A stretch of DNA of 64,000 nucleotides. Origin: Psammoneis japonica. Lineage: Eukaryota. Below the pieces are notes generated by a model, which was given only the letters and a program-made list of their open reading frames with translations, ran no database searches and was not told the origin of the DNA. Made by a program: the position numbers and the translations under genes. Positions within the stretch are counted from its first letter, which is position 1. Every line of letters begins with the position of its first letter. Shown here one piece after another: positions 11,119-64,000 of the stretch. The DNA lies in assembly GCA_008632985.1 (NCBI GenBank), contig QPGO01000007.1, forward strand, positions 62,001 through 126,000, read 5' to 3'.

Positions 11119-11394
11119 TGATAGAAATTGAAGGCAAATGGCAAGAATTCAAACAACAACTCCTTACTGCTGTCTAAACAGCAGATGAGTCTCCGCTCAG
11201 AGACCGTTGCAGGAGCCGAAAGACGTGCAAGTCGGTGCAATCGGGCTGCTGTTGTTGTTCTTGTGAGCCTTGTGGCTCGAAAGCAAACTACATCGCGCGC
11301 GAACGCGTGGAACTAAAGCACACAAAACTGTGCGCGGTAAACTAAACAGCGCGCGACACTTCGCGCGCATCCAAATCCTGTTCAAATCCTGTCA
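11119..11394 (-). repeat. 5' LTR of copia copy 1
   Basis: 276-bp direct repeat, TG...CA ends. Confidence 0.95.
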
Positions 11395-11741
11395 GTGGGT
11401 TCGAGATGAACGTCATCAGGGGATCGACAGAACTCTGCAAGAGGACCCAAAGTTTGGGCTAGGATGAAAACAGTGTCACGGAGACCATTGGAGAGCTTGG
11501 ACTTGTGAGCACGGTGGCAAGAAAAGGCATGATCACCACAGGCATCCAGGATGGCATGGCCACAGGGACAGGGAGTGTTGACAAGGGACGGAGGAAGGAT
11601 GGGGAGACGAAGCTTGTGAAGGGCGGCAATGACGCAGGCGTCCGAAGAAAGGCGGGAGCTTGGGAAGCGATGGGAGAAGGAATGAAGAGGGAGGCTTGCA
11701 AGCGGAGACAGCAATGAAGGGAGCGAAGATTGCACGTCGCA
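11395..11741 (-). mobile_element. CRE-like non-LTR retrotransposon, middle fragment (CCHC zinc knuckle)
   Basis: HKLRLPIL...CPCG..ILDACGDHAFSC. Reading frame is continuous with both neighbouring fragments once the copia copies are removed. Confidence 0.75.
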
Positions 11742-12017
11742 TGATGGAAATTGAAGGCAAATGGCAAGAATTCAAACAACAACTCCTCACTGCTGTCTAA
11801 ACAGCAGATGAGTCTCCGCTCAGAGACCGTTGCAGGAGCCGAAAGACGTGCAAGTCGGCACAATCGGGCTGCTGTCATTGTTCTTGTGAGCCTTGTGGCT
11901 CGAAAGCAAACTGCATCGCGCGCGAACGCGCGGAACCAAAGCACACAAAACTGTGCGCGGCAAACTAAACAGCGCGCGATGCTTCGCGCACATCCAAATC
12001 CTGTTCAAATCCTGTCA
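11742..12017 (-). repeat. 3' LTR of copia copy 2
   Basis: 276-bp direct repeat; the most TpA-eroded of the four. Confidence 0.95.
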
Positions 12018-15000
12018 CTCCCCAGTTTGCTTGAGGAGCCACAGAAACAGATTCGACTTTGGATGGAATGAAGTTCCAGAACATGAGGGGGCGGAGAAGG
12101 TCCCAGATTTGGGAGCAACCCCAATGCTTGCTGAGAATGTCAGCAGGGTTGCGGGAGCCTTCGATGAAGTGGAACTCAAGGCAACCAGAGGCAATTGCCT
12201 CACGCACACGGTGGAACGACAGTGCGGTGTGTCGCTTGTGCAACTTGGAGTGCGGGATGGTGGCACTGTCTACAACCGACTTGTTGTCACCGAACATGTG
12301 ACTGACGTTGCGGATCGGGACGCCAAGGTGGCGCAGGGTGATGCGCAGGTCGACAATCTGCTCAACACAATTCCTTGCGGCAACAAATTCAGATCCGCAG
12401 GTTGCAGTCTCCATGGTGGCTTGTTTCTTGGAGAACCAATCAGCCGGGAATTTGTTGAGGAAGTGGAGCATTCCCATGACAGAGCGTCCGGTGAGCATGC
12501 AATGGTGCAAGTTTGCATCGACGTAGTGGGTGGCAGTGACGAACTTGCCAAGGGGCGGTGGAGCGTCCTTCGGGATCATCTCTTCTGCTTCACCATGCAC
12601 GGAGTGCATCCATTCATGGGCTGGAGCAGGGAGATCCGAATGGTCGGGCTCTTCCGTGCGAACGCGGAGAGCACCGTGTCACATCTTGGAGAGGCACCCA
12701 CAGATGCGTTTGGCACGATCCAAGTGGCCTTGACGGGGCGCAGCTCGGAAGCCAGAGAGTGACATGACAGCCGTGGTGATGTCAATTCGACCAGGGACAC
12801 TGCCCATTGGAGTGAACCAACAAGAGACTGGAACTTGTGAATGCCATCGGGTCCCAGCAGTTCGGAAGTGTCCAGTTCGGGGTGGTCACCCTTCTCCAGA
12901 GGTGACAGGGCGTTGGTGGCAGGTTTCTCCCCAAACAGTCGGGCGCAGCTGTCGACCATGCGCTCGATGTACTTGCGCGGAGACAGGCACAAGGTTCCGT
13001 CGGGGTCCGGGAAAAGTCGCAACCCAGATGGAACTCAATGGGTCCCGTGCCCTTGAGCTTGAACTTGTGCTTTTCCATGAGAGTGTCGACGAAAGATTGA
13101 GGGTCCTTCATGGCAATGGCGAGGTCATCCACATAAACGGCAATGCATTCACAGTGGTCGCCGTTCCTGCGCATCCAAATGTCGGGCTCGGCGCGGCAGG
13201 GGAAGAAGCCTTCAGCTCACAGGCAGTCGGCGAAGCGCTCGTGCCAGCGGAGACCGGAGCTGTGCAGTCCACACAGTGCCTTGTGGATGACAAGGATGTG
13301 TCCTTCGAGTTTGCCAAATTCGGGTCCAGCTACAATGTAAAGCTTCTCCTTGGTGGTGGCCTCAAGGCAGGCATTGCCAATGTCGGTGGCCCATGTCTCC
13401 AGCTCGTTGAGTTCGGCCAGGAAAATCATCAGCCGAAGGCCACGGAGGGAGACTGCTCCGGAGTAGACACTGTCGACAGGTGCGTCCGTGAGGTGCCCGT
13501 CGGCTACGAGTCGTGCCTTGTGGCGACCGTCGTGTTTCACGTCGCACACCAGGTGCACTCGGATCTTCTTGTGTCCCGCAGGAGGAGTGGAAGACTTGAA
13601 GGGCCCGCAGTCATGGAAGACTTCGTATTCGTCGAGTTGGTCCATCTCGAGATTAGTTGCGTCTCCCCACTTGCGGTTGCCGTTGCGTTCGTCTAGTGAC
13701 ATGGCGTGTTTGTAGTTCCGGGGAACTTCGCATCCGCACTTGCAGCGAGGTGCAGTGCGGAAGGAGCGAAGCTTGGCTTGGTTGGCCATGCGAAATAGCT
13801 TCTTTTGGCGCCTCGCGACAGTGCGGAACCGCTTCCAGCCATCCGTGTCGAGGAGTCCGTTCTCTCGTGCATAGATGGCACAGGTGATGGGGTCGTCCTT
13901 GGCGATGATGGCAAGAGGCTCGGACGTGATCTCCCCACTTTCCCATTCAAGCATGATGTTGTAGCTTGAGCCTTTCCAGGTTGGGTCGTGAGGCTTCAGA
14001 GGTCCTTCGTGTGACACGATGCGTCGAAATTTCCAGACAGTGGTGTCTTCGTCGTCTTGCTCAATGTGATTCATGATGTCATTGCAGGCAAGGACTTCCT
14101 CGTATTCGTCATTGTTGACAGAGCAGACGAACTTAGTGAGCTCGGGATTGCCGTTCACTTTCCATTCATGGTCTTCGACGGCCTTGACGATGCGAGCTCT
14201 GTGGCGTTGTCCGTCCTCTTGTGGCTGCATGAGGAAGGTGCGTCCAATGATGTCTTGCGGATCGAAAACTGGCATCTTGGGTGTCCTGATCTCCCCATCA
14301 GGAGAATCGACGGGGTTGTCGTCATGGCGAGATTTGATGATGGGTTCAGGTGGCTCCCCATCAGGAGGATCAAGACGCAGGTTTCGAACGGCAGGATCGG
14401 GGTTAGCGGAGCGAACGTTGGACCGGCAGAGGATCTTTTGAGTCTCGTCAGATGGGATCTTGAAGGTCATCTGGTGGCCGACGTGCTCAGCAATGCCAAC
14501 GAAGCGTCCACGCAACTCACGGGATTCGGACGGCCAATCGGAGTCATCGAGGTGGAAGCACACTGGTTCCCACCAGTGAAAGCGAAGCAATGGGCTGATG
14601 TCCGGGGTGGATCCAGTGAGAGTCTCGAGGGGCGTGCGCCAGTGGAGACGTGGGGACGCTGTGTGGTTGAGCATGAAGCACACGCACATGAGCGCCAGCA
14701 GCCATGTGTGGGCGGGCGAACCAAAACGGTCCATGACAGTGTTCGCCATGCGCTTCACGGTCTGGTGTCGACGCTCGGCAAAGTTTTGGTGTTGCTGGTG
14801 AGGCTCACTTTGCCAGCTGGAGATGAAGAGGGCGCGAGGATCCCGAGCACTTTGTTGCTGATCTCAACTTGAGCACGGTCGCTAATGAGTTTGGATGGGG
14901 CACCACGTTCACGGATCTGATCCTCGAGTGTGTTGACAAACTCTTTGTCCGTCTCAGTGCCGCAGACGTCAGTGACGGTAGACTCGGTGCCAACAAACAG

Positions 15001-17625
15001 TTGGGCGCTGGTGCAACCAGAGTCGACGGCCGGGGTGTCGGCATGAACGGTGTCAGTGGCGATGGGCTCGTTGCGGCGGTGCACATTAAGGGCGGGGTTG
15101 GGTGATTTGTGGGCCTTGCGAAGGTGTGCACCGGCGGGCATGCGGGCGCACTGCGTGGTGCAGTCAAAAGTGCGACGGACCGCATCGGCAGGCAGGAAGC
15201 CGAAGCAAGGCCGAAGAGACTCGAAGGGGGGGTCCTTGGGCTGTACAGTGCGCTCCGGAGGTGGAACGTCATCGCCCTGGGGGCCAATCGCATGCAGATG
15301 ACACTCGTAGAACACGTCGTCATTCGGAATGAGGTGATCATCGAGGGCGGACGCGTGATCAGCAGACAAGGAAGCGGACAAGATGGTCTCGTTGACAACG
15401 ACACGGTGACGGCAGTTGCCGCATTCGTCAAACAGGTTGGCAGTGGGATCGTCCTGCAGGTCAGAGATCGCGTCGTGCCACTGGTCGTCGTCAGTGACAG
15501 AGTGATCGAGGACGGAAGGGTCCCATGTGTCATCACCGGTGAGGATGACATGGGGCAGGGTGTCCCATTCGACGTCAGTGCAAGGGCGCATGGCAACATG
15601 AGGCAGGCCAGCCTTGATGTCAATGGGGATGACACAGCCATCAGGAGTGGCAATGCGTTGCAAGCCGTTGGGCACCTTGACAGAGCGATCGTTGACATCC
15701 TGTTTGTGCCATTCGAGCTGGCCGCAGGAGTGGATGGTCTTGCCCTTGCCCGTGCACGTGTGCTGATGGAGGATGGCGATGACGGGACCACGCTGGGTCT
15801 CAATGATGGCACCAGCGGTGACAATGGGGATGTCCACCAATTGATGATTGTCAATGCCCTGAACGTCGACTTGGCAAGAGGTGCGTGCAATGACGCGAAC
15901 ATCGTCGCCAGCAATGCCGCCGTTGGCCCCACGGTCGACTAGAGCGCCAGTGCGTGTGGAGCGATGAGCAGAGGCAGAGCAAATGACATTGTGGTTGTTG
16001 ACGCGGCGGCAAGTGCGGCCGTTAAGTTCCATGTCATCTGCAGAAGCTGGCAGGGTAGAGGAAGCGGCGGATGGCCCCGGTCGACTGGCATTGGGGGCTT
16101 GGCCAGGAGACAACAGACGTTGCAGATCACCGGGTGGCAGTGGCTTGCGCTTGGTGAGGTGCGCCAGGATGGGATTGTCCGAAGTGGCGTCCACATGTGG
16201 AGCAGAGTCACCACAGTCAGCGGGAGTCGTGTTGGACAAGTTGACATCACCGTCACTCCCAAGGTGTTGGTCGTGAAGGTTGGCCGCAACAGACTCATGC
16301 CAGTTGCTGGCTCGCGGGTTGCGGGGAGGCGGACGAGAATGCTCAAGGATGATCGCCTTGGAGGAATCGGGCAACGAATCCCAGAGCCGTTGGTGGTCGG
16401 GAGGGAGACGTCTCCATTGGACACCGGTGAGGCTGGGACCGCGGGTGCAGGCAGCATTGGCTTGAAGGACGTCAACGTCGCTGTCAATGTCGTAGAACAC
16501 ATCGTCGGACAGGTCCTGGACGTCGTGTGCGCATGTGGCGCGTCGGGGAGCTCGAGGTGTCGTCTTGGGTTGAAACGTGCTGTCGCACTGAGCTGCCGCG
16601 GAGAGGAGCAAGCCACAGCATTGATCGCATGTGAGGCTCTTGCCACTCTGCGTGCGATGCTGATCAGCTTGGTTCTTGACAGCACGGAGTTCCTCGACAG
16701 GGTGCACGGCATTCTTGAGCATGACGCGCTTCTGTCCTTCAGAGAAGTGGTCGCTGGCGGGGATGAGTGCCTCGCACTTGCGCAACTGATCTTGCCAATG
16801 AAGGATGAACCCGTGGGTCGGACCTTTCCAAGTGCCATCACCAAGACGTGCGGTGGTGAGGTGCGTGAGCAGGGTGGAGGACTCGACAGATGCGCGGGTG
16901 GAGGCAAGCGCGCACTCAGACAAGGAGCGGCAGACGGTCTGTGCGTCAGAAGACCCCACATTTTCACGAATGAGAGCCTTGCCCTTGTCGGTGAGAAGGA
17001 TGCGTTCGAAGACGGCGAACATGTGCTTTTGCTGTTCAGCAAAGAGCAGTTTGTCTTCGGGGCTGGTCGGTTTGTACGACGAGTCTAGAATGCACTCGAC
17101 GTCTTGGGCACGGGCTTGTGCCACAAGTGAGGTGTGCCAAGTGTGCTGCTGCTTGTCAGATTTGAGAGCCGTGAAAGCGGTGGGATCACGCTTGATGCCT
17201 CGCTTGAAGTCTCGCACCGGGTCGCGTGCCTTGGTCGGGTTGGTGACATGTGGAGGTGCAAGGGGTGAGCTGCCGATGGACACAGAGGACATGTGGTCCG
17301 GGCTGAGGCGGCAGGCAAGGAACTCGTCATGCGTGAACAAAGAGGAGTCGTTGGCAACGTCAAGACCTTTGTGTGCTTTGACAATGTACAGACCAGCTGG
17401 TGCTGCCAACATGTTCTTACAACCACGAGGCAAAGGGATTGCATCAGTGCCGTTGTCGTGCTCAAGCGAGTCGATTTGGGACGGTGTGAACGTGAACAGT
17501 TCCTGACACGAGTCCATGCCGTCTTGGGCCAAAGCCAAACGAAGAGGACTCCCAGCACCTTGGGCAAGCACGGTTCCAACAACGTGCTCGAAACCATTGA
17601 TTTGTTGCTGACGAGTGAGAACCAT
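11965..17625 (-). pseudogene. Copia gag-pol polyprotein, copy 2; 1-bp deletions (~14836, ~13007, ~12792), nonsense codons and Tyr->Cys/His changes
   Basis: Same domains as copy 1, split over ORFs 14755-17655, 13217-14758, 12782-13174, 12576-13022 and 11965-12609. Confidence 0.9.
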
Positions 17626-18567
17626 GGCAGACAAAAGTGGTGTCAGGACAATCAATTCTGGTTGGAAAGCGAAGGTAGACTCGAAACTTGGGTGACAACA
17701 GACTTGACTTGAAATGGACTTGACTTGAAATCTTGAACTGTCTTGAAATCAGAAGTCGCCGGGCTTTGTCACCCCGTTCGTTGTTGAGTGCTAAACTTCC
17801 TGTCCGGTCCGTAGAGTTGTGCCGGCACGTCCGAACCCGCAGCTGGCGGCGCTTTGGGTTGCTCACGAGCGGAGCAGCGGGTTGTAAACCCCTGCAGGTA
17901 AGCTGACCCAGAGGTGGACAAGACCCCCGAGCCGTTCTCATTTTATGTCGGTTGGATTTCCCGATCAGGCTGGCCAGTTGACGCAGGCGTTGGGCGCTGT
18001 GGACGAACGAACAAACGCGGGAAAGCACCCTCGCCCCAACGCAGGCTGCAATCACGGCTGCTTGCTCTCACAGTCATCCTCGTGGACCTGGCAGAACTGT
18101 GGAGCACCAGCAGACCGGGGTAGATCAGGTGCAATGGACTCGGTGTGCTTGCAGAGTGGCAGCAAAACCGCAGTCCGAAGAGTGGGTGCAGGTTCTTGGC
18201 CGTGAAGATGTGCGCATGTGTGCACATGTCTTCAGCGACGAAGATCCTTGAATGTGCAGGGTTCTTGACCGTTGGCCGATGAACGGGTGTGTCAAGGGAT
18301 GAGGATCAAGGACAGACTTGGATGTGACCGTTGAATGCATGTCTTCAGCGATCAAAGGTGGTGTGATCAATCCAGATGTCCAGCGGTAAGGAGACTTGAC
18401 GGTGACGTTAACTTCCTGCCGATGCCCTGGCCATTGAATGCGCGTAGACTTGCCGATGTATGTAGAACATATACGGAGGTCCACGTAGAATTGAAACAGC
18501 GTCGTTGGTAAATCAACGACGACGATGGCGGTTGCTCAATGGGTTGACAATGAGCAAGACTGTAATC

Positions 18568-18843
18568 TGACAGAAATTGAAGGCAAATGGCAAGAATTCA
18601 AACAATAACTCCTTACTGCTGTCTAAATAGCAGATGAGTCTCCGCTCAGAGACCGTTACAGGAGCCGAAAGACGTGTAAGTCGGTATAATCGGGCTACTG
18701 TTATTATTCTTGTGAGCCTTGTGGCTCGAAAGCAAACTACATCGCGCGCGAACGCGCGGAACTAAAGCACACAAAACTGTGCGCGGTAAACTAAACAGCG
18801 CGCGATACTTCGCGCGCATCCAAATCCTGTTCAAATCCTGTCA
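18568..18843 (-). repeat. 5' LTR of copia copy 2
   Basis: 276-bp direct repeat; retains 16 of the 17 TpA sites seen across the four LTRs. Confidence 0.95.
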
Positions 18844-28966: not shown

Positions 28967-30224
28967 GGTGTGAATGGACTATGAAACGTCTTTGACAGTC
29001 GGCTTCCCTTGGCCATTGGTCTCTCGTTTCGCGTTCGTTTTGTGTCTTCAAGTTTTGCCGATTGATTTTGGCGAACACGATGACGTCTGTTCGTAGGATC
29101 CTCGTAGAATAGACACAGATATTATCGTACATTTATGGATAAGTATAAAAAAGTAGTGGGTGCGTGGCGTGGAGCGCGCACTCGGAGTGTCACCTCATCT
29201 GTCTGTCGGTCATTCCTCCGAAAAGGTGGTAGGTACCATAGGAGTACGTTTTATTTTGGGACCACCTGCCTCGCTCTGGTCCGCTCTAGTAGCTAGTTAG
29301 TGGCGCCGTACTCAGCCTCAAGATTGCTTGTTCTTCTCCAGCCAAAACGTTTTTCTGATTGAAGACTCGATGACCCTCCTCATCGATGGCTTCAAAAACG
29401 GTCGAGTCAATCCGCTCACAGTGTTCGCGGATTTGCTGATTGAATGATGTTGGCTTTTGTCAGTTTTTGATTGAGCCTCTCTTTAAAGAGGGCACCCCAG
29501 AAAAGCAAACCAGTGGAAACTAGTGATAAAATGCGCCACCCTGGCCATGACGAGTTCTCCTGGACAAAGGAAAGTAACGAAGCAACCATGGTCCACAAGA
29601 CATGCTTGTCAAGTCCCACGTGAGCCGCGAGAAAGCAGCAGAATTTCCAACTGCAATGGCCGCAAAAAATAAGCCCCGATCCTTTAAATCATGACTAATT
29701 ACAATCATACCAACAATCAGAACCATTGAACACAACGCCAGCCCGGTGCTCTGTCCTGTGATTCCCTTTCGCCTCAGTGTCATCCCAAAAGCACTCAATT
29801 GAACAACTGCGAGTGCAGCAAGCTGAACACTCATATGGTTGGATAATAAAAGACAATTTGTATTGGCATGAAACTGTGTCGAAGACATGAGATAAAGCAG
29901 TTGCGGTGGTCCTTTCAGATCTCGTATTGTCCGGCTTGATTCACCTCTTCTTTTAAAGTGCGCTGTCACAGTGTCAGCGGCAAGCATTGTTGCAAGGACC
30001 ACAGTATATGCTGGCAAAGGTGACCATAACAAGAAAGAAATAGATTTTGCTTTATTGCCTTGAGGCACAATGGGGTGGCGTTTTCGAAGCCACGCCAAGA
30101 GCAGAAGCAGGTGGCATCTCCCACAAAAGACAAGCGCGTGAAATCGATGCTCATTCCATGTTCGACTTCCGTCGGGGTGCCTTTTCTTTGGAAGCTGAAA
30201 GAACAATCCGGTGAGTTGTAGTAG

Positions 30225-30515
30225 TGCCGAATGTCACGGTCATCTATATTCATTCGTGTGTTCATTCGTGGGTGTCAACCTGGTGTCAAAAGTGTCAAAA
30301 GGATGTCAACGATGACACTTTCTAGAAACCTCTTCTCCTTTCTCGATGCATCTCGATGCCTCTCGAAAGATTGTTTCTTTACATTTCTACGCGGTTTCTT
30401 AGCATTAATTCTACGAGATTTCGGAGTAGCCGAATCTCTTTCATTTCTTCTCACAATGTTGGCAACAGTCAACTTTACAACGCTACTTTATACTATTACT
30501 TGGCGCCACTTGGCA
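30225..30515 (+). repeat. Gypsy 5' LTR
   Basis: Direct repeat of 34834-35124 with 8 substitutions. Confidence 0.95.
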
Positions 30516-30588
30516 TAGTAAATTTACTCCCAAACACTTGTTCATCTCTCTTGAGACACATCTACCGATCATGTTGTCCTGACCAGAC

Positions 30589-33500
30589 ATGTCAGCAGAA
30601 AACTGCCCATTCGAACTTAAGCGTCCTGACCGCTCTGAGGAAGAGCGGCGCAAAGACCAATTCGTGTCTTTTGAAAGCCCCATTGATCCTGACGATCCAG
30701 ATGGGCTTAAAATTACGATCGAGGTGCGTAAGTTAGCTTCAACTGAACCGGAAGATGTTCTTACCTTCTGGTCAAACTTCGATGAACTTATCAACGATCT
30801 CGGTACGGCTGAAGGACAGCCACGTTTCCGGCTCGTGACCAGACTTATGACCGGAACACCAAAAGACGACTGGGAAATCGTCGTAGACGATTACGAAAAC
30901 CGCGACCAAGTTACATTCGACACTTGTCGTGAAGAATTTCTACTCCAATACATGGATAGAGAAATTGCCCTTGACACTAAGGAATGGCTTCAAAGCCTTA
31001 AGAAACCCAGGAACCAAACTGTCAAGTCATTTGTTAATGACATCCGTCGCTTTAATAAGTTGATTAATGTCATGCCTACGCCAACCGAACATGACGCCGA
31101 AAGAGTTCCGTCATTCACGGAAGCGGAATTATCCGTAATCCTTCGAAAATGTGGACCAAGATCATGGGCCGAAACTCAGACTAAAGCCCGTCTTCGCAAC
31201 TTAAACTTGAACGACCAAGCTCAACACTACGAGACTCTCCGACGTGTGGAACGACGTGGTGGCAAAGGGTCTACCGACAACAACAGACGCAACAACAATG
31301 GGAATCAACGCAACAACGGTCGACACACGCGTCACGGCCAGAATAACGACCAAAATCGCGATGCCAGGAACAGGAATCAAAACAATCGTGAACAAACATG
31401 TCCAATCCATGGCGTTGTACATCCGAACGGTCAAGAGTGCAATGTCATCCGTCGTGAACGTGAAAATTATGAGCGGAACCGCGCAAATCGGAATGCGCCG
31501 AATCAACAAAATAACTCTCGAAACGAGCCGACACACCGCTATCCTACACGGAGCCGCACACGGAACGTCGAAAACAACAATGTGGACTCCAAAGCTAGTC
31601 GCTCCGCTTCTAACGATGTCGATAGCGTCGCGTCAGATGATGTCAACGATATTTTTGAAGACGTCACGTCTCTTCTAGACGATTCCATCGAATCCGAAGT
31701 AGAAGACAATCTTACCACGGAAGCGCGTGTCCAGATGATTGACACTCATTCTGGAATGCACAAGTTCCGTGTTGCTCTACTCGACACCGGCGCAAATCGC
31801 AATTTTGTGAAGCGCTCAGCCCTTCGCGGGATTCCTCACAAAATCCGTAAATGTAACGTTCCCGTTAAAGGCCGTTACAGTGCCGTTAATCTACACGAGA
31901 TTGCGACGCTGACATTGAAGTTCCCAGACTTCGCATCGTCCAAGAAGGTTTCCGTCGATGCTTGTGTGGAAGACAAAGCCGCAGGAAAACACGATGTTGT
32001 CATCGGAAGAAAAACCGCCACAGAAATGGGACTCGTTTTTGATTTTCGACATCAAACAATCACGTGGGGCGATGTTGCCCTATCCATGCGATCCAAGGGC
32101 TCTTTCGACCAAGTCGAAGTTAATGCAATTCATCCCGGCGATGCTGAATTACCCAAGTTCTTCCAGAATGCCGTCAACCGTCAGGTTCGAGGTATGACGA
32201 GCAATGCGTACGACAAGCACAATTATCGCGACATGGTTCTACGCTGCAAACACCTTGATGACGATCAACAGCACCAACTCATCGAACTCTTCGGACGATA
32301 CCCGCAATTATTCGATGGCACACTTGGAGCTGTACCCGGTAAACCTGTCCATTTGACCCTGAAACCAGGATCGCGTCCATGCTGTGCGAAAGCTTACACC
32401 ATTCCGCAAGCGTTATATCCCATGGCTCGCAAAGAAGTGGATGAATTGGAAAAAATCGATGTTATTACGCGCAAACTTCACTCTCCTTGGGGCGCACCCT
32501 GTCTTTTCCGATCAAAGAAAAGCGGTGGTATCCGTTTCTTATCCGATTTACGGAAACTCAACGAGTGTCTCGAACGGCATCCATGTCCACCACCTATTAT
32601 CGACGACGTCGTATGGAAAATGAACGGCTTTACCTGTGCGACATGTTTGGACCTCAACCGAGGCTACTGTCACTTCGTGCTTGACGACGAGTCAAAAAAA
32701 CTCTGCGGTGTCATCCTGCCGTGGGGCAAGTATTGCCACAACCGCCTACCGCAAGGAATCAAACCGGCAAGCGATATTTTTCAAGCTTGCATGACAGATG
32801 TTTTTCATGATGTGGAAGACATCATGGTCTACATCGACAATGTCATCCTCTTTACCAAGAACAACTTCAACCATCACTGTCAACGACTCGAACTCGTCTT
32901 GCAACGGCTCCTCGCGAACAATCTTCACGCACATGTCGAAGAATCCTATCTCGCCGCCAAGACCGTCGACTACTTAGGCTGTGCCATGACTGCAAAAGGC
33001 ATTCAGCCTCAGAAAAAGAAAATCCTACCCTTGCTTCGCTTCGCTCGCCCTCAAAACCGTCGACAATTACGTGGTTTCATCGGGTTCGTGAATTATTACA
33101 AGAAATTGTGGCACCGACGCAGCCACACTCTTACGCCCTTAACTGCGCTGTCATCAGACAAAGTCAAATTCAAGTGGACTGACGTCCACACGGAAGCTTT
33201 CAATCAGATGAAAAAAATTGTGGCGCGCGAAATCCTCCTCCGATTCCCCGACTTCTCTCAACCTTTCAACATCTATCCGGATGCGAGTGATTGTCAACTT
33301 GGTGCAGTAATTACTCAAGATTTTGACGATGGCGAATGGCCAATTGCATTCCACAGCCGAAAATTGTCTCAAGCGCAACGAAACTACACGACAATGAAAA
33401 AAGAGCTGCTGTCGCTCGTGGAAACGACCGAAAATTTCAAAAGCATCCTTTTTGGTCATCGATGCTACCTATTTGCCGATCACAAAAATCTTACATTTGA

Positions 33501-34812
33501 CAAATTCAAGTCAGAACGCGTCAAACGCTGGTGTTTGCTTCTCGAGGAATGCGATTGCTCTTTCGAGTGCCCACCAGGCCACAAGAATGTCGTGGCTGAT
33601 TTTTTGAGTCGCTGTCCCATTGTCCAAGTCGATCAAAGCGATTACGAGGAAATGACTTCGTTGGAAATCGATCCTTCAATATTCCCCGTTACTTTCGACA
33701 TCATCGCCGACCATCAGAAAAAAGATTCTGCTCTTCAGCAACGACTCGACAAGTCCGAATCCCACTCAGCCGAACTGTTCAACGGAAAACAGATTATCCT
33801 TTACAAGAACAAGATTGTCCTCCCTCCAACGCTTTTTCCTGCAGTTCTACGGTGGTGCCATGAAACTCTCTGCCATCCTGGTGCTGATCGCACCTGCCAA
33901 ACTTTGGCTTCACATTTTTACATTCGCGACACACAGATGAAAGTCCGTACTTTTGTCCGTAAGTGCCGCACGTGTTCCAAATCCAAGTGCACTACGGCAA
34001 ACTATGGCGAATTACCTCTTCCAGATACTACTTATAAACCTTGGCAGGCAACTCAAGTCGATCTTTTCGGTCCCTGGACGTATGCCGACAAAAATGGTGT
34101 CGATCGCAAAATCAGAGCCGTTTCAATTATTGATGTCGCAACCCGTTGGGTCGAACTCGCGAACTATAAGTTCAAAACGTCCGAAGACATTTCACTTATC
34201 GTCGATCGCGAGTGGTTTTGTCGCTATCCGCGACCAGAAATTGTCATTTATGACAACGGTTCCGAATTCACTTCCGAGTTTACAGATCTCCTCTACAGTT
34301 ATGGTGTTAAACCGAAACCTACAACAATCAAGAATCCTCAAGCCAACGCGTTCGTTGAACGTATTCATCAAGTGATAGCCGATTCTCTCCGTGCGATGGA
34401 TCTCCCTTCTCACGATCATGATGAAGACACAATTCATGGAATTTTGCAATCCGTTGCATGGGCCTTGCGCAGTACCTACCATACTGCCCTTATGTCGTCT
34501 CCCGGACAAATTGTCTTCGGTCGAGACATGGTCATTTCTGCTACTTATCTTGCGAACTGGAAAATGATTAATACCCGTCGCAAGCGCGATGTCCTACGCA
34601 ATAATCTCCGCGAAAACGCAAAACGTCTTACTTACGACTACAACATCGGCGATCAAGTCTTCGTTATGACCAAAGACATCCAACGCAAACTCAACACCAA
34701 AGATGGTCCTTTCCGTATCGTACGTGTCCATACCAATGGAACCGTTACCATCCAGCGCTCGCCTCACGTCACTGAACGTATCAATATCCGCCGTCTTCAC
34801 CCTGTCTTCTAA
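30589..34812 (+). CDS. Gypsy gag-pol polyprotein (open, but with Tyr->Cys/His changes in RT and RNase H)
   Basis: LLDTGA protease, RT (DLRKLN, RLPQG, YIDN), RNase H (DASD, DHKNL, ADFLSR), integrase HHCC plus DNGSEF...ER and a GPF module. Confidence 0.93.
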   Translation: MSAENCPFELKRPDRSEEERRKDQFVSFESPIDPDDPDGLKITIEVRKLASTEPEDVLTFWSNFDELINDLGTAEGQPRFRLVTRLMTGTPKDDWEIVVDDYENRDQVTFDTCREEFLLQYMDREIALDTKEWLQSLKKPRNQTVKSFVNDIRRFNKLINVMPTPTEHDAERVPSFTEAELSVILRKCGPRSWAETQTKARLRNLNLNDQAQHYETLRRVERRGGKGSTDNNRRNNNGNQRNNGRHTRHGQNNDQNRDARNRNQNNREQTCPIHGVVHPNGQECNVIRRERENYERNRANRNAPNQQNNSRNEPTHRYPTRSRTRNVENNNVDSKASRSASNDVDSVASDDVNDIFEDVTSLLDDSIESEVEDNLTTEARVQMIDTHSGMHKFRVALLDTGANRNFVKRSALRGIPHKIRKCNVPVKGRYSAVNLHEIATLTLKFPDFASSKKVSVDACVEDKAAGKHDVVIGRKTATEMGLVFDFRHQTITWGDVALSMRSKGSFDQVEVNAIHPGDAELPKFFQNAVNRQVRGMTSNAYDKHNYRDMVLRCKHLDDDQQHQLIELFGRYPQLFDGTLGAVPGKPVHLTLKPGSRPCCAKAYTIPQALYPMARKEVDELEKIDVITRKLHSPWGAPCLFRSKKSGGIRFLSDLRKLNECLERHPCPPPIIDDVVWKMNGFTCATCLDLNRGYCHFVLDDESKKLCGVILPWGKYCHNRLPQGIKPASDIFQACMTDVFHDVEDIMVYIDNVILFTKNNFNHHCQRLELVLQRLLANNLHAHVEESYLAAKTVDYLGCAMTAKGIQPQKKKILPLLRFARPQNRRQLRGFIGFVNYYKKLWHRRSHTLTPLTALSSDKVKFKWTDVHTEAFNQMKKIVAREILLRFPDFSQPFNIYPDASDCQLGAVITQDFDDGEWPIAFHSRKLSQAQRNYTTMKKELLSLVETTENFKSILFGHRCYLFADHKNLTFDKFKSERVKRWCLLLEECDCSFECPPGHKNVVADFLSRCPIVQVDQSDYEEMTSLEIDPSIFPVTFDIIADHQKKDSALQQRLDKSESHSAELFNGKQIILYKNKIVLPPTLFPAVLRWCHETLCHPGADRTCQTLASHFYIRDTQMKVRTFVRKCRTCSKSKCTTANYGELPLPDTTYKPWQATQVDLFGPWTYADKNGVDRKIRAVSIIDVATRWVELANYKFKTSEDISLIVDREWFCRYPRPEIVIYDNGSEFTSEFTDLLYSYGVKPKPTTIKNPQANAFVERIHQVIADSLRAMDLPSHDHDEDTIHGILQSVAWALRSTYHTALMSSPGQIVFGRDMVISATYLANWKMINTRRKRDVLRNNLRENAKRLTYDYNIGDQVFVMTKDIQRKLNTKDGPFRIVRVHTNGTVTIQRSPHVTERINIRRLHPVF

Positions 34813-34833
34813 CGTCTCAATTGGGGAAGCGAG

Positions 34834-35124
34834 TGCCGAATATCACGGTCATCTATATTCATTCGTATATTCATTCGTGGGTGTCAACCTGGTGTCAAAA
34901 GTGTCAAAAGGATGTCAACGATGACACTTTCTAGAAACCTCTTCTCCTTTCTCGATACATCTCGATGCCTCTCGAAAGATTGTTTCTTTATATTTCTACG
35001 CGGTTTCTTAGTATTAATTCTACGAGATTTCGGAGTAGCCGAATCTCTTTCATTTCTTCTCACAATATTAGCAACAGTCAACTTTACAACGCTACTTTAT
35101 ACTATTACTTGGCGCCACTTGGCA
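34834..35124 (+). repeat. Gypsy 3' LTR
   Basis: Direct repeat of 30225-30515. Confidence 0.95.
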
Positions 35125-35686
35125 AGTAGTATATGCGGGGCAAACAGAGCAACACTCTTTGCCGATTCATCAAAGCACATATCCTTAGATGCATCGACAC
35201 CAAAGAACTCGTAGTACCGGTACAAAAAGTGACACAACACAAACGCTCCGAGCAGCGCATGGACTCTGTGAAACCACCATTCTTTGTTGGACGGTAATTT
35301 ACTGGACGAGGTTATCAAAGCTCGGGGCATTCTGCATCCAGGACGAAAACAACACCATGGCGATCAATCGCAGGAAAAGTTCAATAAAAGATCGGCGGAG
35401 CGAGGTGCTGAAAGTTTGATCTTCACGAACCAATGTTTTATAGTTTATCTTTATGGTGTTGCATCTTATTGTAAGGTTATTACTCTGAATATTACAAAAT
35501 ATTCGCATACTCTAGAGAGAGGAACTTTCATACAATAAATTCCAATCGCGCGTCTCGCCCCAAATCAAAAATGGTGAAGTCAACGGCGTACCGGTACTTC
35601 GACTCCTCTAAAGGCTCTCTTCGTACATGAGATAATCCCGAGAACAACGCGCCATACATAAGCAAGGGGAAAAACTTGGGGAGAAA

Positions 35687-56332: not shown

Positions 56333-56629
56333 GGTCAGTCATCATGTTTCACGTTTTGTGGGTTGTGCTTTTTCTCCCCTATTTGTGTCGCTCGGCTCGA
56401 GGTCGCGAGGTCTGCAAGATCCAAACAAAATCTTCTGAATCTTTTGATTGATCCACGATCCACGCGAGAGACAAATCTTTCATTCCTTTCCGAATGCAAA
56501 AATCACCGATCGCAAGATGCGAACACTTTCGTTTCGTCGTTAACATCTTTGAAATGCTTTGGGGTGTATGAAAACAGCCACACACTTATTGATCAGGCGT
56601 CATCTTATCAGCTACAATCTTGGTAGAAC

Positions 56630-57130
56630 ATGTGGAGCTTCAATCCGGTCGTCTACATTCAGCATGCTTGGAACGGGACCAAAACCAAATGGGGCAAAGC
56701 GAGTCTCATTCTATTCTACACATTCATTTGGTTGAGCATTCTCTCAAGCATATGGTCTTTGTTTGATCCAGAGTCTCAGGGATCGGGCTGCATCTTTGCG
56801 GATGCAGAGTCTAATGAGAAAGAGTCTCTACGACTTCTATTCAGAAGCGCCAGTCTCTTTGTCATTGGATTCCTTCTCTATGCAGACAAAGGGGGTTTGC
56901 ATTCCTGGAACGTTGCCATGGTCACCTTCTTCTTTCTGTCGTTCTTTTGGTTGTGGAGCAGTTATGCAGCCTCTTCTTCCACCACCGCTGCTTGTGGAGC
57001 CGTTTGGAGTAATGCGTCAATGTGCATCATGATTGCGTGGCTCGTGGGTGCTTTGGTGACGATTCTTTTGGAGGAAAAGCTTGGTGGTGAAAACGGAACA
57101 GAAGAAGAGCGTCAGAGTCTCAACGTCTAG
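56630..57130 (+). CDS. Hypothetical 4-TM membrane protein
   Basis: 166-aa ORF with four hydrophobic segments. Confidence 0.7.
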   Translation: MWSFNPVVYIQHAWNGTKTKWGKASLILFYTFIWLSILSSIWSLFDPESQGSGCIFADAESNEKESLRLLFRSASLFVIGFLLYADKGGLHSWNVAMVTFFFLSFFWLWSSYAASSSTTAACGAVWSNASMCIMIAWLVGALVTILLEEKLGGENGTEEERQSLNV

Positions 57131-58099
57131 TTATGGTAGGTGAACTTCGAAAGCAGAAACGATGCTATTAGAGTCAACGAGTCGTTAAGTAAACGCTTTG
57201 ACTATGGATCGCTCTGACACTGATCCACTGCTGTACTGCAGTCCACTCTCAAGATACCCAGCAACATGCGTTCTACCTAGTTGCTATTTACTCTAAGAAC
57301 GTCAGCATTTGAAGCATTTGAACTAGAAACGAAGGAAAAAATGCTGTGATGAACGCACATGAGCAAAATTATCACGCTGGTTGAGAAGTTCAGTGCTCAA
57401 TCTTTTTGCTCGAGGAAACTAGACAGACTGACCCAGTGGACGACACCTCAACATTCCACATCCATTTCAAAGCATTTTTCCAGAGCCTTTAGTATGTACG
57501 GGTTTCGATGCGTCGCAATGGAGCGGATTATACATACCTTAGCATATAAATTACAACTTGCCGGATTGGGCTAAGCATTTGCTTAGGGCACGCTTACATT
57601 TAACAACTTTTCCATCGTTGGATGCAGAGCTACTAGCTTGAAGCTCTCTAGTAGAGAGGGCCTACTGTGCTCTAGCTAGAGAGGTAGGGCTAGTAGGGGA
57701 GAAGCAGATCTTCTCGCAATTTGTATCTTTAGAGTCTCTTTTGTTTTCATTACGTATCTTCTAGCCTCTGTGCTATTTGCAACCTCAAAAGAAAGAGGAT
57801 CCTCACTTCGTTCTCTAAACGGATATCGTTTTCTGACTGATACTTTCGGATGAATTCAACGGACTTATTGGCTTTTTCCGTGCTTCAGAAGTAGGTAGCA
57901 AAGCGGTGCTGCCTCCCTCTTCCAATAGCTCTTTCTTTTTTTTGCTATTTTGTGGTGGCATGGCTTCTGAGCTACAATATAAGAAGTGTATAATGTGGTG
58001 TGCCTGTACTAGACAGTCGCACTATAAAAAACAAGGGCTGGCCTCATTATCCTACGGTTGCAGTCACGCCCCCGGCCGTGACATTGTTGTGTAACAGCG

Positions 58100-61000
58100 A
58101 AAGCCCGTAGCGCTAGCTGTAACTGGTCATGGGTGACAAAGCAGAAAATCTGCACAAGTTGCTTGGCCCAATTCTTCTGCAAACAGGCAAAGACATTTTC
58201 CTTTCCCATCGTCATTCTCGATGCAGCCTTGGGAGGTGGATCATCCATCTGCTTCGTCTCACAAAGAGGCTGACGTCGCACCAATTTCCTGTCGTTACTG
58301 TCCACATATGGGTTTGAGATTTGATTGATTTCGTGGACTTATCATCGATGAAGCAAGAAAATTCAGGCTCAAGCGCACCAAAGACAGTTGACACTTCCAG
58401 CGTGAGTTTCAACCAAACGAACTCAATTTCCTTCTTGTCCGAAGCATCACATTCCGAAACTTCTTCGACAAGTTGTCAATGGAAGCCACTGGGCTGGCAT
58501 GATTGCATGGGTCGTTGCCGCAGTTCTCCACCCCCAACAACCAAGCAACAACGGTGCCAAAGCACATCATCTGTGAAACCTGTGCACACAACTGCCAAGG
58601 CAAAATGATTGCCATCAAACCTCAACTCCGATGCAAACCATGTGTGGTGCACATGATGAGCATGTGTGTGTCAAAGAACATGACTTGCACAAAGGAGTGA
58701 AAAGCAACATTGTCAGAAAGTCACAGCTGCTTTCATTTGTTTGTGCGACAACATTTAACACACCAGACTTTAATGGAGGTCTGTTGAAAGCTGTTGCTTT
58801 TAACACAAAAACATTCAACATTTTTGGCTTTCAATGGAAAACTGAAGTTGCATCTTTCAACAGATGCTTGCATCCTCTCTGTGGTCAGCTGTGCATTGAC
58901 ACACGGGACAATGGCATCACAATTTCATCATCATGCCCAGCAATGTGCATGATTTCTTGTGTGAAAAAGCAAGGTTGGTGATCATTGTTTAGAGCTCGGT
59001 GACGATGCCCCACTTTCCACAACTTGCCAGAGCTTGACCTTGGTCTTGGCAAGAACTTTCAATGCTCGCCACATCAAAAACTTTGCTTGCCTCTCTGGGG
59101 TGCTTTGACATGATGTTGACAACAACCAGTGGCCCTGCTTTGATTGAGAGGTGGGTTTTTTGCAATGCCCAGTCATTGTCAACAAAGCACAGCAGTGTTG
59201 CGCGCACGCTGCTTTTGTCATTTTCACTCTTTAACATTGTTCATCTTTCCACAAGAATCTGTTGAAAATCTCATCTTTCAACAGAAATCTGTTGAAAGTT
59301 GCAGCTGTCAAAATGTGCTGGCTTTTCACAGGAGGTTGGCTTTCAATGTCTGTGAAACAGCCATTGAAGCATGGCCATGCACTGCACACATTAACCTGCT
59401 TGCTTGAGACCCAGAAAAAGAAGGTCAATGAGGTGTTGCATGTGATGCACAAGTGTGCAAAAAGAGCATTGTTGACAAAACTTGGGCTGCAATGTCTTTT
59501 CAAATTTGGCGCACAAGCAACCACGTGCACAATGATTGTCTCCTGTCTCCAGCACTGCTTCAATGGGTGGCCCTGTTTGCAATGACTCCCAAATTTTTCC
59601 AGCACAACAGATCCAAAGAAGAGCTCCAGAGCCTCAATGTGCAGTTGTGGCAGGCAACCTCAGGAAGAAAAAATGATGCTGTCAGTGCCAATGAGTCATT
59701 GAGCAAACAACTGGACTGCGGATTGCTTTGATGCTTGTCTGCTGCTGCACTGCAGCCCATTCTTGCCAGCTCAATGCCCAGCAATGTGCGTTCTGCCCAG
59801 CTGCCATTTGCTTCAAGAGCTTCAGCATTTGAATTTGAAGCACTTGAGTTGTTGGAGATGAAGAAGCACTTGCGTTGGAGATGAAGGAAAACATTTTGTG
59901 ATGAGTGCACTGTGCCAGTTGAGAAGCTTGAGTGCTCAACATTGTTGCTCCAGGAAGGCAGACAGGCTGGCCCATTGGACAACACCTTGACACCCCACAC
60001 TCATTTCAAAGCACTTTTTCATGTCCAATTGTCTGAGTGATGCGCAGCACATTTTTCACAAGACTCCCCCCCTGCCATGCTCTGCAGCAGATGCGCAGGT
60101 CCACCATCTCCATGTCAAGCACTGGTGGTCATTTGCTTTTCTTGTGTTCAGCCTGGGACTCTTTGTTCACTTTTGAGCTCCAGAAAGCTGATCCTGCATG
60201 TTCTTTGAACACTTGAATTGCTTTTGCTTGACTTTGGCAAACAGAGCTCTGGCACATTTCAACAGAAGCACAGCAAGTTGTGTGCATCACACTCCATGTG
60301 CACCCCATGAAAAAAGTCAATCTGACACACAGCATCAGCAGGCTGCAGCAGTGCTCCTTGCACAGTTTTTTGGGACCCTTTTTTCAGCTGGCAACTGCCC
60401 TGGCTGCAAAGCTCAAAAATTGCATGATTGAGTGCTTTGCTGCCTTTGCAACAAAGGTGGGCTGGATTGTAGAAAATGACAATTTGCATGGCAAGGTGCT
60501 GCATCAAAGGCCACAGGCAAAAGGGCATCTTTCATGATGTGTTCCAGGGAAGGGGGCTCAAAATGCCCAATCCACTGAGTCCACCAGCAGGAGGTCCAGG
60601 TTGACATTGTTCCACTGAAGGTGATCTGATGTTCCAAAATGCTGCAAGTGGTTGGAAGACCCCCTGTCACCCAAATTTTCCATTTGTTTGTTCCAAGCAT
60701 GAAATGCCACACCAGTTTCTTTGGCAGCAGGGCTGCCACTCTTGATGGTGGTGAGATGTGAGATTCTCATTGACCAGGGCAAAGATGCTGGTTGTTGTTT
60801 TGTGCACACTTTGCCCCAGTTGTCCTGCAAGGAGAAAACTCATCTGCGCAAGAATGAGCAGCAGCAAGGTTTCTCATGGACCTGCTGTGATGGTGCTGAG
60901 TGATGATGCAACATGTGTTGCTCATCTTTTGTCTTTTGCTTGCATGGCCAGCTGCCATGTGCCCATCATCATTCAGCTCTTTTGGCTGGTCCTTTGAGTT

Positions 61001-64000
61001 GGAAATGACCCTTCTTGAGCACCCTGGCTGGGGCCACCACTGGACAGCGCAAGGGAGAACTTGGTGGTTGATGTGAAGAGTCTTGTTCCTGGCCAGCACA
61101 TGAAGTGCAAAAGACCCAGCAATGCCAGCAAGAAGCAAGAAGCAAGAAGGCAAGACAAAAATCCACTGGCACTCCTGTCATTGCCCAACAATGCCTGCTG
61201 TCACAGCACAGGATCAAGCAATGGCAAAAGTGCTGATGTCAAGTTGCCAGAATTTTCATTCTTTAGAAGAGTCAGAAGGCAGCAGTGCCACAGAATCCTC
61301 AGAGAGTGAGCACCACACATGTGACAGGCCACTTTCACAGCTCAGAAACTTGGATTAAAACTCAAATCTGTGCCAGCATCTGCACTGATGAACAGAATCT
61401 TGATTTCACTTCTGCTCCAGCAATGACCAAGTCACACCAGGAGGACAAATTGGTCAGAGCATTTGCTCCATCAGCCCCAAGTAAAACAAACTGTGTTCAT
61501 GGTGAACAGGGTGTGCACTGCTCTTGCATTTTCTGCACAAGGGTTGCTTCTGGCACCCCCATGTCAGCAACAAAGAGCATCATGGTTTGACCATGTCATG
61601 GCAATGCAGTGCAAATGTCATGAAATTTTTGTGTGTCTGTTGTTTCGCTTGATTTGGCAACACATGTGATGGTGTCATCACACACCATGGACACAACCAC
61701 CACATCCCATGTGGCGGCAAAGGGGTGGGAAAAGATGCACGATCAAATGACAAACAGGTCACACTTCTGCAGAAAACACAGCCAACTGCTGCACAATTGC
61801 CCTTGTCAGCTTTGGCTGGTGCAGCACTCCTTTTGCTCCTTTGTCTGAGAATTCAGAAATGACTCTTGAGCTCCAGCATGTGATGAGAACTTGCATGGAT
61901 TGATGCTGCATTGCGCAAACTCAACATTCTGTGCCACCACCACATCCACCACTGTCATTTCTCATTGCTGATGTTGGGTGCCATTCAAAACTGAAAATCA
62001 GCAACTCCTCTTCACCACTTGTCTTCTTGTTTGTTGTTGTTGCTCCCTTTTTTGTGTGGGGGCAGAATGAAGCCCACTTCTTGACAGCGGTGTTCTGAGA
62101 AAGAAAAATTCCTCAGCAGCTGGCAAGCAAGATGACATGTGTGCAGAACAGCTGTTGTGAGCAAGGCTCAAATCAGTGACTGCAAAAAAAGCAATTTGTG
62201 GATGTGAGGCAGCTGCATTTGTTGTTGATGCTCTCACATCATGGCTGCAGTTTGTGAGCACTTGTTGCAAAGTTGTTGATGCTCAGCTGTGCCTCAACAA
62301 CACATTTGGCAGGTGGTTTGTGTGCTCATGAAGACAGACAGTGCACTCAGCAAAGGGCCTCAGTTGTTGGTGAGACACACATCATCTCATCAGCCAACCT
62401 CTTGAAAGAGTGCATGGAGCTTCAATCTGGTCATTTGCATTTAATGTCATGTGCTCGGAGTGGGGCCAAAGCCAAACTTGGCAAAGCATTGAGTGTCTCA
62501 CTCCACTCTGCACACTTGCTTCATTTGACACTCTCTCAAGCATGTGATCTTGGATTGACCCAGAGGCTCAGTGGGCTGGGCTGCATCTTTGTGCATGCAG
62601 GACCCAAGAATGAGAAAGACAAAGCACCCATCTTTTTGTTGTTGGGCCCCCAATGTTGCCATGGGTGCTTTCTTCTTTTGGTTGCAGAGCTTCTGTGCAA
62701 TCTTTTCTTCCACCACCTCTGCTTTTGTGGAAATGTTTGGGGCAGCAGCGGCACACCAGTGCAGGTCATGACCATGCAGTGGCTCAAGGGTGGCACTCAG
62801 TGAGGTGTGGCTTTTTGAAGGAAAAGCTTGGTGGTGAAAAAAGAGCCCAAAAGAAAGAGTGCCAGAGTCTCAGTGCTCAGTTTGCAGGTGAGCCCAGAAA
62901 ACAGAAATGCCACCACTGGTGCCAACAAGTCATTGGGTCAGTGCCTCAACTGGGGGTTGCTCTCCAACAATGTGCTGTCCCAGTGGCCCACTTCTGCTTG
63001 CACCAAGCAAGCTGCTTTTCCCACCTGACAGCTGCTGCTTGCTCTCCAAAAGCACCAGCCCTTCTTGGGTTGGAGACAGATGAGGGGTTGAAGGGAAAAA
63101 TGCTGTGGTGTGCATCCATGTGGCACCGTCCACTTGTCACCACTCACAGAGTTGTTGGGCCAAAGCAAATCCAGTGGCTGCCATTTTTGGATTTGCTGCC
63201 AGTGTTCCAACACCAGCTGTCCACAAGCATTGTCAGTGCTTGAGAAGTCAAATGCTCAAATCATGTGCAACTCTGGGAAGTGGGACAGACTGAGAGACCC
63301 AGTGGCGGGCAATGGCACAATGCCCTCAACATTCTGTGCCTGTTTCAAAGCACTTTTCCATGTCCAATTGACCAAACAAGGCAAAGTGCATTTGTTGCAA
63401 GACTTCTCACCTGTGCTCCACAGCAGCTTCACAGGTCATCCAGCAGAGCCACCAGCTCCATCATTGAGCACCTGAAAGAGCCAAATGACAAGTGCTTGCA
63501 TTGCTTGTTGCTTGTGCATCATGTGCCTTTGAGTCAAGGGTGTTCTGTCCCACACCTGGCACAGTTTGCTCTGCCTGGAAGAGACCAGCCATGACAGAGA
63601 CACACTGCACATGACCTGCACTGAGCAGAAATTTCTCTGCACAATGTCAGTCAGTGCATTTGACAAAAAGGAGAAACAGGTCACAGTGGGTGTGTCAGCA
63701 AAGATGAGATCACAAAGGAGCTGGGTAATCACCAGAGGCATCTGCAAAAGTCTGTGAGTGGCAGCAATGCCAACTCAGCATGTGGGTGAAACTCAAAGGC
63801 CTGGTTCAAAGCCATGATGTGGCCCTGCATGACCTCTCCAAACTCAGTCAAAGAAAAAGAAGAAGACAGCCTGCTGGCATTTGTTCAGTGTTTCCTTGGG
63901 TGTGGATCTCATGGACACTTCCATTGGGAAAAGGGAGAAACAAATCAACCATGAAAAGACAGAACTCACCAACATGCTTTTGGTTTGATTCAGTGCACAA
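58100..64000. other. Heavily degraded, probably repeat-derived tract, nearly devoid of TpA and strongly CpG-depleted; family not identifiable
   Basis: About a dozen TA and roughly 25-30 CG dinucleotides (by eye) in 58.6-64 kb; large TG/CA excess; only short Cys/His-rich, Tyr-poor ORFs. Confidence 0.75.

Follow-up and report, generated by a model that had tools for sequence, protein, structure and literature searches.

Recurrent removal of TpA and CpG from host-gene duplicates in the diatom Psammoneis japonica, a probable case of chromatin-guided TpA hypermutation

TpA-specific hypermutation has been described in the alga Bigelowiella natans, where A:T pairs are changed to G:C in integrated DNA of NCLDV (nucleocytoplasmic large DNA viruses) as well as of virophages (Mettrop et al., bioRxiv 10.64898/2026.01.13.699255). 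According to the available text of that preprint, the TpA spectrum was measured directly in mutation-accumulation lines, a subset of which displayed a de novo rate about 1000-fold over background, DDE transposase and reverse-transcriptase domains are enriched in TpA-poor sequences, an ADAT-type deaminase is proposed, and ADAR favours a 5' U. Repeat-induced point mutation (RIP), as presented in the consulted sections of PMC3017866, turns C:G into T:A, makes TpA from CpA and TpG, hits both copies of a duplication, and needs homology and a sexual cycle. With regard to diatoms, the accessible part of PMC9998398 reports CG methylation confined to islands of transposable elements (TE) with H3K9 and H3K27 marks, and a mutation study in Phaeodactylum found a GC to AT bias with CG, CC and TG as mutable sites, its examined text giving no TpA excess (PMC6604790). 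In the literature searched, insofar as its texts were accessible, a process such as the one reported here is described only once, in Bigelowiella, an alga unrelated to diatoms; the search, with most subscription papers outside its reach, returned no description in diatoms, and the accessible text of PMC12344493 does not mention TpA. Here we analyse a 64,000-nucleotide window of Psammoneis japonica DNA (contig C9, positions 62001-126000, of its own 91-Mb assembly; C9 coordinates continue beyond the window end, and positions without a contig name are those of the window). From 58121 to the window end, and on to C9:131313, this DNA is a tract purged of TpA (TA) and, for most of its length, of CpG (CG).

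As in the available account of Bigelowiella, TpA has been turned almost exclusively into TpG or CpA (56 of 61 source TA) in bounded regions with normal DNA outside. The differences are several. In Bigelowiella the targets are read as foreign and the NCLDV region has a Rho of 0.45, whereas here the observed/expected ratio (o/e) of TA is 0.03, the tract is saturated, and the host is a diatom. The preprint text at hand mentions neither diatoms nor CpG, whereas here CpG is lost too and removal is recurrent. A foreign target fits the window's copia, gypsy and DDE elements, but not the ~31% of the tract that is copied from host genes; unlike the Bigelowiella targets, those identified at this locus include duplicates of genes that belong to the host itself and whose originals, next to them, are spared.

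A preliminary description of this DNA had reported that TA and CG are scarce from about 58.6 kb onwards, that TG and CA dominate, and that the open reading frames (ORFs) are nearly free of Tyr. This is confirmed by dinucleotide counts. Positions 58600-64000 (5401 bases) hold exactly 12 TA (o/e 0.03) and 27 CG (o/e 0.09), against means of 373 TA (minimum 336) and 307 CG (minimum 264) in 200 base shuffles, and TG (634, o/e 1.88) and CA (642, o/e 1.91) are the dominant dinucleotides. In the tract core the ratios are 0.03 for TA and 0.07 for CG; in adjacent gene DNA (C9 82-118 kb) they are 0.61 and 1.01. The six frames of about 1800 codons each contain 0, 0, 0, 2, 1 and 0 Tyr and 39-58 stops per frame. 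The near absence of Tyr thus simply follows from the loss of TA, and the tract ORFs are not genes.

The left change points lie at 58121 for TA and 58553 for CG, and the right ones outside the window, at C9:131167 for CG and C9:131313 for TA. The TA-purged tract (58121..64000 and on to C9:131313, unstranded) thus measures about 11.2 kb in all, of which about 5.3 kb lies beyond the window end. At its left rim (58121..58553, also unstranded) TA is lost and CG kept, and at the right edge the TA zone extends 146 bp past the CG zone. Just right of the tract, C9:131250-131590 (341 bases) has a CG o/e of 0.37 and a TG/CA o/e of 1.52 with a normal TA o/e of 0.57, as if it had formerly been purged and later released. 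In short-read contigs of run X1 the tract has a depth of about 60-70, equal to its flanks, and one contig (52865-59098) bridges the left boundary; both argue against a chimeric join, although they are not independent support because X1 may be the source sample. In those contigs the residual CG at 59510 reads T and an extra T follows 58768 (allele or polishing differences). A contaminant, an artefact of assembly, or functional DNA in which selection keeps TA and CG low would account for the odd composition and for nothing more. We find any of the three scarcely conceivable: besides the bridging contig at equal depth, the copies described below contain gaps and stops abound in all frames, 83 of the 174 sampled kb of C9 are likewise TA-poor, and the tract holds colinear copies of its own flanks, which refutes this explanation.

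These copies were found by self-comparison, and all lie on the + strand. The left flank, a 167-aa gene with its 3' flank, has copies at 59504-60021, 62382-63110 and 63240 onward, and two more beyond the window; the right flank, which comprises the 5' end of an RME-8 gene and the region upstream of it, has copies at 61134-61552, C9:127617-128033 and C9:129080-130122. The copy at 59504..60021 (+) corresponds to the 3' end and 3' flank of the left gene (68% identity to 57092-57482; its reach to 59504 rests on tile alignment) and keeps 0 of 16 TA. That at 61134..61552 (+) derives from the 5' end of the RME-8 (DNAJC13-type) gene, matching C9:131657-131770 and 132120-132412, and keeps 0 of 8 TA and 0 of 16 CG. 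A gapped copy of the whole 167-aa gene occupies 62382..63110 (+; 62% identity to 56600-57351), with 0 of 11 TA and 0 of 14 CG kept in well-aligned columns, and a further purged copy, of the 3' flank and the linker start, lies at 63240..63442 (+; 65% identity to 59919-60106). Several of these pieces form part of a repeated unit of 2.6-3.1 kb (59918..62485, +), which recurs at C9:128034-131139 with 70-73% identity over 1360 + 1360 columns; it runs from a flank piece through an unassigned linker, the RME-8 5' piece and another unassigned linker to the start of the 167-aa gene copy, and the three aligned blocks of its two occurrences differ by 46 TG/CA swaps.

By length, 31% of the tract is host-gene copy, 34% a twice-repeated linker without known source, 4% dispersed repeat and 31% unassigned. 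The TE or virus origin suggested in the preliminary description is therefore not supported for the identifiable part: no Pfam family was found in seven tract ORFs or in 12 frames translated through stops, Rfam gave 0 matches over 56000-64000, and a blastx of the tract against the 129 proteins gathered in the analysis gave no match. When 58100-62300 and C9:126001-128100 were compared as DNA with the assembly itself, the matches, which are lower bounds, were only the local copies, a minisatellite and a solo long terminal repeat (LTR), and a transition-tolerant search with 21 unassigned 350-bp tiles against 174 kb of C9 disclosed no source above background. The unassigned 31% could be old mobile DNA. 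That the ancestral sequence is obscured, as the description had it, was an overstatement, since sources lie 2-6 kb away with 72-83% identity in well-aligned columns. Of the dispersed repeats, the minisatellite (59227..59313, unstranded) consists of about 2.3 units of a 30-bp hairpin present on many other contigs, and C9:127300-127616 is an element of 320 bp, bounded by TGTTG...CAACA, for which the genome has about 100 candidate relatives. The latter reads as a solo LTR, its terminal motif being what we take as an LTR mark. A 350-bp tandem duplication, 95% identical (C9:128884-129585), arose within the already purged tract.

Reading the copies against their sources (1842 well-aligned columns, identity 72-83%) reveals the changes directly and bears out the proposed saturation by conversion of TpA and CpG to TG and CA. 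None of 61 source TA was kept, 28 having become TG, 28 CA and 5 something else, and 1 of 78 source CG was kept, with 38 now TG and 33 CA. A second aligner with a different filter gave 0 of 60 TA kept and 56 converted to TG or CA; with the same aligner, the copies within the window alone kept 0 of 36 TA and 1 of 45 CG. Both strands are thus hit alike.

In contrast, the sources beside the tract are spared. The left one (56627..57130, +) is an intact gene for a conserved 167-aa protein that belongs to no Pfam family and has 9 homologs at 40-56% identity, one of them named from the diatom Mayamaea pseudoterrestris; the protein retains the invariant Y31 and Y85, and gene plus flank have o/e values of 0.44 for TA and 0.80 for CG. 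Its non-coding 3' flank (57131..57482, +), the source of three tract copies, also keeps its TA (8-14 per 200 bp over 57001-57600). The RME-8 source ORF to the right matches PF19432 RME-8_N (E 4.7e-43), and overall the spared sources have a TA o/e of 0.44-0.57 and keep their conserved Tyr. Unpurged relatives of the 167-aa gene family are a paralog pair on contig C174 (83% identical, about 500 bp) and one paralog on C28, and an unpurged Ser/Thr/Ala-rich tandem-repeat ORF of about 1 kb (51813-52888) keeps its TA as well. TA-free relatives of this ORF appear elsewhere in the read contigs.

This sparing bears on the possibility of a RIP-like system that senses duplicate homology with another base target. 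The tract does consist of duplicates, the genome has 27 matches to the C5-methylase family PF00145, and the accessible text of PMC9998398 states that diatoms carry DNMT4 enzymes related to fungal RID. Fungal RIP requires a methyltransferase of the RID/DNMT4 type. However, RIP mutates both copies, whereas the adjacent sources, including the non-coding flank, keep their TA; the C174 paralog pair and the repeat ORF are unpurged; and within an LTR pair the loss of 8 or 14 TA can fall on one partner, with none on the other. We consider such a system very improbable. The resemblance to RIP of ascomycetes, judging from the sections of PMC3017866 consulted, lies in dinucleotide-specific transitions that destroy repeats and gene duplicates within sharp domains. 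The process itself is not RIP: TpA is here the substrate, the sources are spared, and CpA to TpA changes number 0 of 2264 in the copia copies described below (CAA to TAA 0/851, CAG to TAG 0/682, TGG to TAG 0/731).

Removal in the tract is recurrent. Of 279 source TG/CA sites, 29 had exchanged TG for CA or the reverse, whereas double transitions at ten other dinucleotides amounted to 25 of 1110 (Fisher p 2e-8), a swap level 4-5 times background, the swap sites not being fully independent as tract copies may share some history. Only 5 of the 279 source TG/CA sites are now TA or CG. Since every transition in TG or CA gives rise to TA or CG, newly made ones must have been removed again. Simulation at about 75% identity (4 replicates per setting, rates chosen by the analyst) gave a swap fraction of 0.13 and a single-change fraction of 0.04 under recurrent purging, and 0.02 and 0.28 after a one-off purge; the observed 0.15 and 0.02 match the former and not a single burst. 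Hence, of the "end state" previously proposed, the saturation stands but the frozen condition does not: the tract is a running cycle in which TG and CA interconvert through short-lived TA and CG.

Younger stages of the same process are found in the retrotransposons of the window. Two tandem copia LTR elements (4290..18843, - strand; RVT_2 match) have a TA o/e of 0.06-0.55, below 0.3 in most 1-kb bins, and a CG o/e of 0.73-1.06. A gypsy element (30223..35134, +; RVT_1, rve and RNase H matches) represents the earliest stage: its LTRs differ at 10 positions, 8 of them TA to TG/CA and 2 at the alignment end, with 15 CG in each. In one copia pair the LTRs are distinguished by 14 single TA sites, by one TG/CA swap and by one CG, and in these pairs the TA losses, 8 or 14, can all lie on one side. 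We extended the comparison to a copia family set (the best 30 of 40 scored, from 385 candidates; the copies share ancestry, so that the cells counted are not independent events). TA was lost in 2017 of about 3350 TA-class cells (about 60%) and CG in 400 of about 10,400 cells at CG columns (about 4%), and the loss of TA per copy ranged from 12% to 81%. Young retrotransposons thus lose TA before CG, and do so on both strands; TA, TG and CA occur side by side in 83 of the 117 TA-class columns. The two losses correlate across copies (Spearman 0.59, p 6e-4). Context rates were 0.39 for TAC, 0.37 for TAT, 0.20 for TAA and 0.16 for TAG, so that TAY exceeds TAR about twofold, and the old tract leans the same way, toward TAC-type context over TAG. 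Polarity is confirmed by the window copia copy, which at 19 conserved Tyr columns of a homolog alignment reads Y8 C6 H3 W1 F1, with Cys or His in 9 of 19, while keeping 7 of 7 W, 12 of 12 F and 4 of 4 C. Among 120 copia homolog proteins none showed such a loss of Tyr (the lowest kept 12/19 Tyr; median Tyr 3.8%). At the other end of the window, 335-868 is a Tyr-free relic of a DDE_Tnp_4 transposase, which lies at the end of another purged block (C9 ~56.2 kb onward).

The copia spectrum also weighs on two other chemistries. Pol eta targets WA, that is TA and AA, with transversions. A Pol eta-like error-prone patch repair at the T:G mismatches left by 5-methylcytosine (5mC) decay, mutating nearby A:T as in somatic hypermutation, would couple the losses of TA and CG and would agree with a mildly raised A to G rate after A in the old tract. 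In the copia copies, however, A to G after C or A is essentially absent in codon tests (1/2264 and 0/1980, the latter made up of AAA to AGA 0/520 and AAG to AGG 0/1460), TA sites show 268 transitions against 7 transversions, and TA loss comes before CG loss and far exceeds it. Such repair is largely refuted by this spectrum, and we give it very little credence. Oxidation of the T of TpA in silent DNA to 5-hydroxymethyluracil (5hmU) or 5-formyluracil, which would mispair with G and yield CA/TG, is unlikely, if less so. The palindromic nature of TpA leaves the hit base ambiguous, and dinoflagellate 5hmU is linked to the silencing of TEs and is reported to replace T preferentially in TA and TC, according to the portion of PMC11572971 available. 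But the TC context is not raised here (A to G after G 0.5%, GAA to GGA 0/1039 in the copia copies). A genome search for Tet_JBP gave no match, and its control likewise matched nowhere.

Editing of retroelements by ADAR (on RNA) or APOBEC (on DNA) is one-stranded, mostly clustered and tied to reverse transcription. The changes reported here share with it the deaminase-type transitions in mobile DNA, but both directions are equal within one copy, the two LTRs of an element differ, and gene duplicates that were not retrotransposed are hit. RNA editing fixed by reverse transcription was rejected as a candidate in view of the 28 TG and 28 CA in gene duplicates and of rare events without strand coordination.

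The tract is not an isolated case. Along C9:32-206 kb, 83 of 174 1-kb windows have a TA o/e below 0.25, and 28 of these also have a CG o/e below 0.25. TA loss with CG o/e above 0.6 occurs in 30 windows, CG loss without TA loss in 0 of 174. The o/e profiles of other contigs carry similar TA-poor blocks. Among 49 metagenomic copia loci, three (L124, L128 and L115) have a TA o/e of 0.13-0.31 and Cys or His at 56-83% of conserved Tyr columns, and the remaining 46 have these residues at 6% or less; short-read assembly can collapse copies and so hide the signature in such loci. L124 and L128 are 94% identical, and we therefore count them as one family; of the differences between them, 26 are of TA type, 20 are TG/CA swaps, 8 are of CG type and 19 are of other kinds. 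The best matches of two of the three scarred loci in the own genome are 64-71% identical over long alignments (40 scored for each), so that these loci probably come from other organisms. The 46 unscarred loci, together with the accessible text of the Phaeodactylum mutation study, suggest that the process is not universal.

We believe that a chromatin-guided hypermutation of TpA, most likely by adenine deamination, acting together with methyl-CpG decay on gene-junction duplicates, is the probable explanation of these results. We infer a history that would have started when the junction between the 167-aa gene and the RME-8 start was duplicated in tandem, followed by repetition and rearrangement and by the gain of a minisatellite piece and a solo LTR; the copies on the outside would have remained working genes and the inner ones would have turned into a silent island. 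There a first, fast mutator would change A:T to G:C at TpA on each strand independently, with the twofold TAY preference, and would most likely be a TadA/ADAT-type enzyme recruited to silent chromatin that converts DNA adenine to inosine. A second and slower one would be the decay of CpG to TpG/CpA after cytosine methylation by a DNMT5-type enzyme. Ordinary transitions at TG or CA would then make TA or CG, from which TG and CA would be restored with roughly equal probability. The island layout, the two-strand change of CG to TG/CA and the presence of a DNMT5-type gene resemble DNMT5-dependent CG methylation with 5mC decay in diatoms as presented in the consulted parts of PMC9998398 and PMC6604790, but that process cannot remove TpA. 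The DNMT5 layout is given by adjacent same-strand ORFs on contig C76 that match PF00145 (C5-methylase) and PF00176 (SNF2), and, in addition to DNMT2-like and DNMT5-type genes, the genome has several C5 methylases that are intact and consist of a single domain. Its deaminase genes comprise a TadA-like one on C38, an ADAT2-like one and two A_deamin genes, none of which stands out. The ADAT2-like gene on C26 encodes HAE, PCIMC and, in the next exon, FFGCRNDRFGG, that is, HxE, PCxxC and an Asn at the D108-equivalent site, as expected of an ADAT2-like candidate of the Bigelowiella kind; this residue is, we presume, usual in eukaryotic ADAT2, and the motif is hence not diagnostic. The two A_deamin genes (ADAT1/ADAR-type) lie on C40 and C79. 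Presumably one is expected for tRNA editing, which makes the second a candidate. At C79:88500, a CDA-fold deaminase domain shares one open frame with a stretch that by eye resembles a 2-oxoglutarate/Fe(II) oxygenase.

Several points weigh against this explanation. The palindromic TpA gives no distinction between A to G and T to C. In the old tract, A to G occurred after A at 52/242 and after G at 31/251 sites in one analysis, an excess that was weaker in another (32/251 and 23/246). At the residue that corresponds to D108 of E. coli TadA, the TadA-like protein carries Asp and not Asn, and normal editing of tRNAs, we assume, accounts for the deaminases found. About 65% of the tract is without an identified intact source, so that its history is partly a guess, and source survival may partly reflect selection. 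The TA zone lies outside the CG zone at 6 of 7 edges with both depleted and not at all of them, in a count that leaves out two edges beside copia copies that keep CG. The copia cells share ancestry. Finally, rare events form no strand-coordinated clusters (39 of 73 in the same direction within 100 bp, null 0.52), which is unlike a processive single-strand deaminase; all 2017 events show a small same-direction excess (0.55 against 0.524, p 0.007) that shared ancestry could explain.

A related alternative holds that the adenine of TpA is N6-methylated in silent DNA and then deaminated or misread, alongside 5mC decay. It would account for TA and CG being lost together. However, eukaryotic N6-methyladenine is known from ApT in active chromatin, and ApT in the tract is only mildly low (o/e 0.78). 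A genome search for MT-A70 gave no match, and its control likewise matched nowhere. This alternative appears quite unlikely to us.

Beyond this locus, hypermutation by adenine deamination leads us to a wider proposal, which is plausible but on balance somewhat doubtful: some diatoms, like chlorarachniophytes, may run a natural DNA adenine deaminase guided by silent chromatin rather than by foreignness or homology pairing. It would scrub TpA from any silenced domain, including redundant host-gene copies, reach slightly past the methylated core and, together with 5mC decay, lock the domain into the TG/CA cycle. If this is true, the TpA mutator in print from one alga also operates in diatoms, where it reaches saturation and destroys host-gene duplicates, so that it would influence both the survival of duplicates and the death of transposons. 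Such an enzyme would be a mutator for genome defence in eukaryotes, with a polarity opposite to RIP, common to two SAR (stramenopile, alveolate and rhizarian) lineages, and nature's equivalent of the engineered adenine base editors, which would matter for deaminase biology. The adjacent source and copy pairs make targeting directly testable, as silent-chromatin position against homology or foreign origin. In practice, the joint TA and CG o/e provides a marker of dead islands that ranks their age (TA first, CG later), and long Tyr-free, Cys/His-rich ORFs in such genomes should not be taken for genes, GC content and mutation spectra being distorted there.

Two further observations concern other contigs. 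C174:112-132 kb and C10:830-850 kb, probably allelic, are 97% alike in the gene region and 78-92% alike in a purged block; the comparison of this pair and of C27 with C334 for ongoing change is blurred by indel noise and composition. A multi-copy family similar to C5 DNA methyltransferases lies in TA-purged DNA on C301 and C297 (TA o/e 0.07-0.10, CG about 0.7), and its copies, some of them with stops, are either borne by a mobile element or purged host duplicates.

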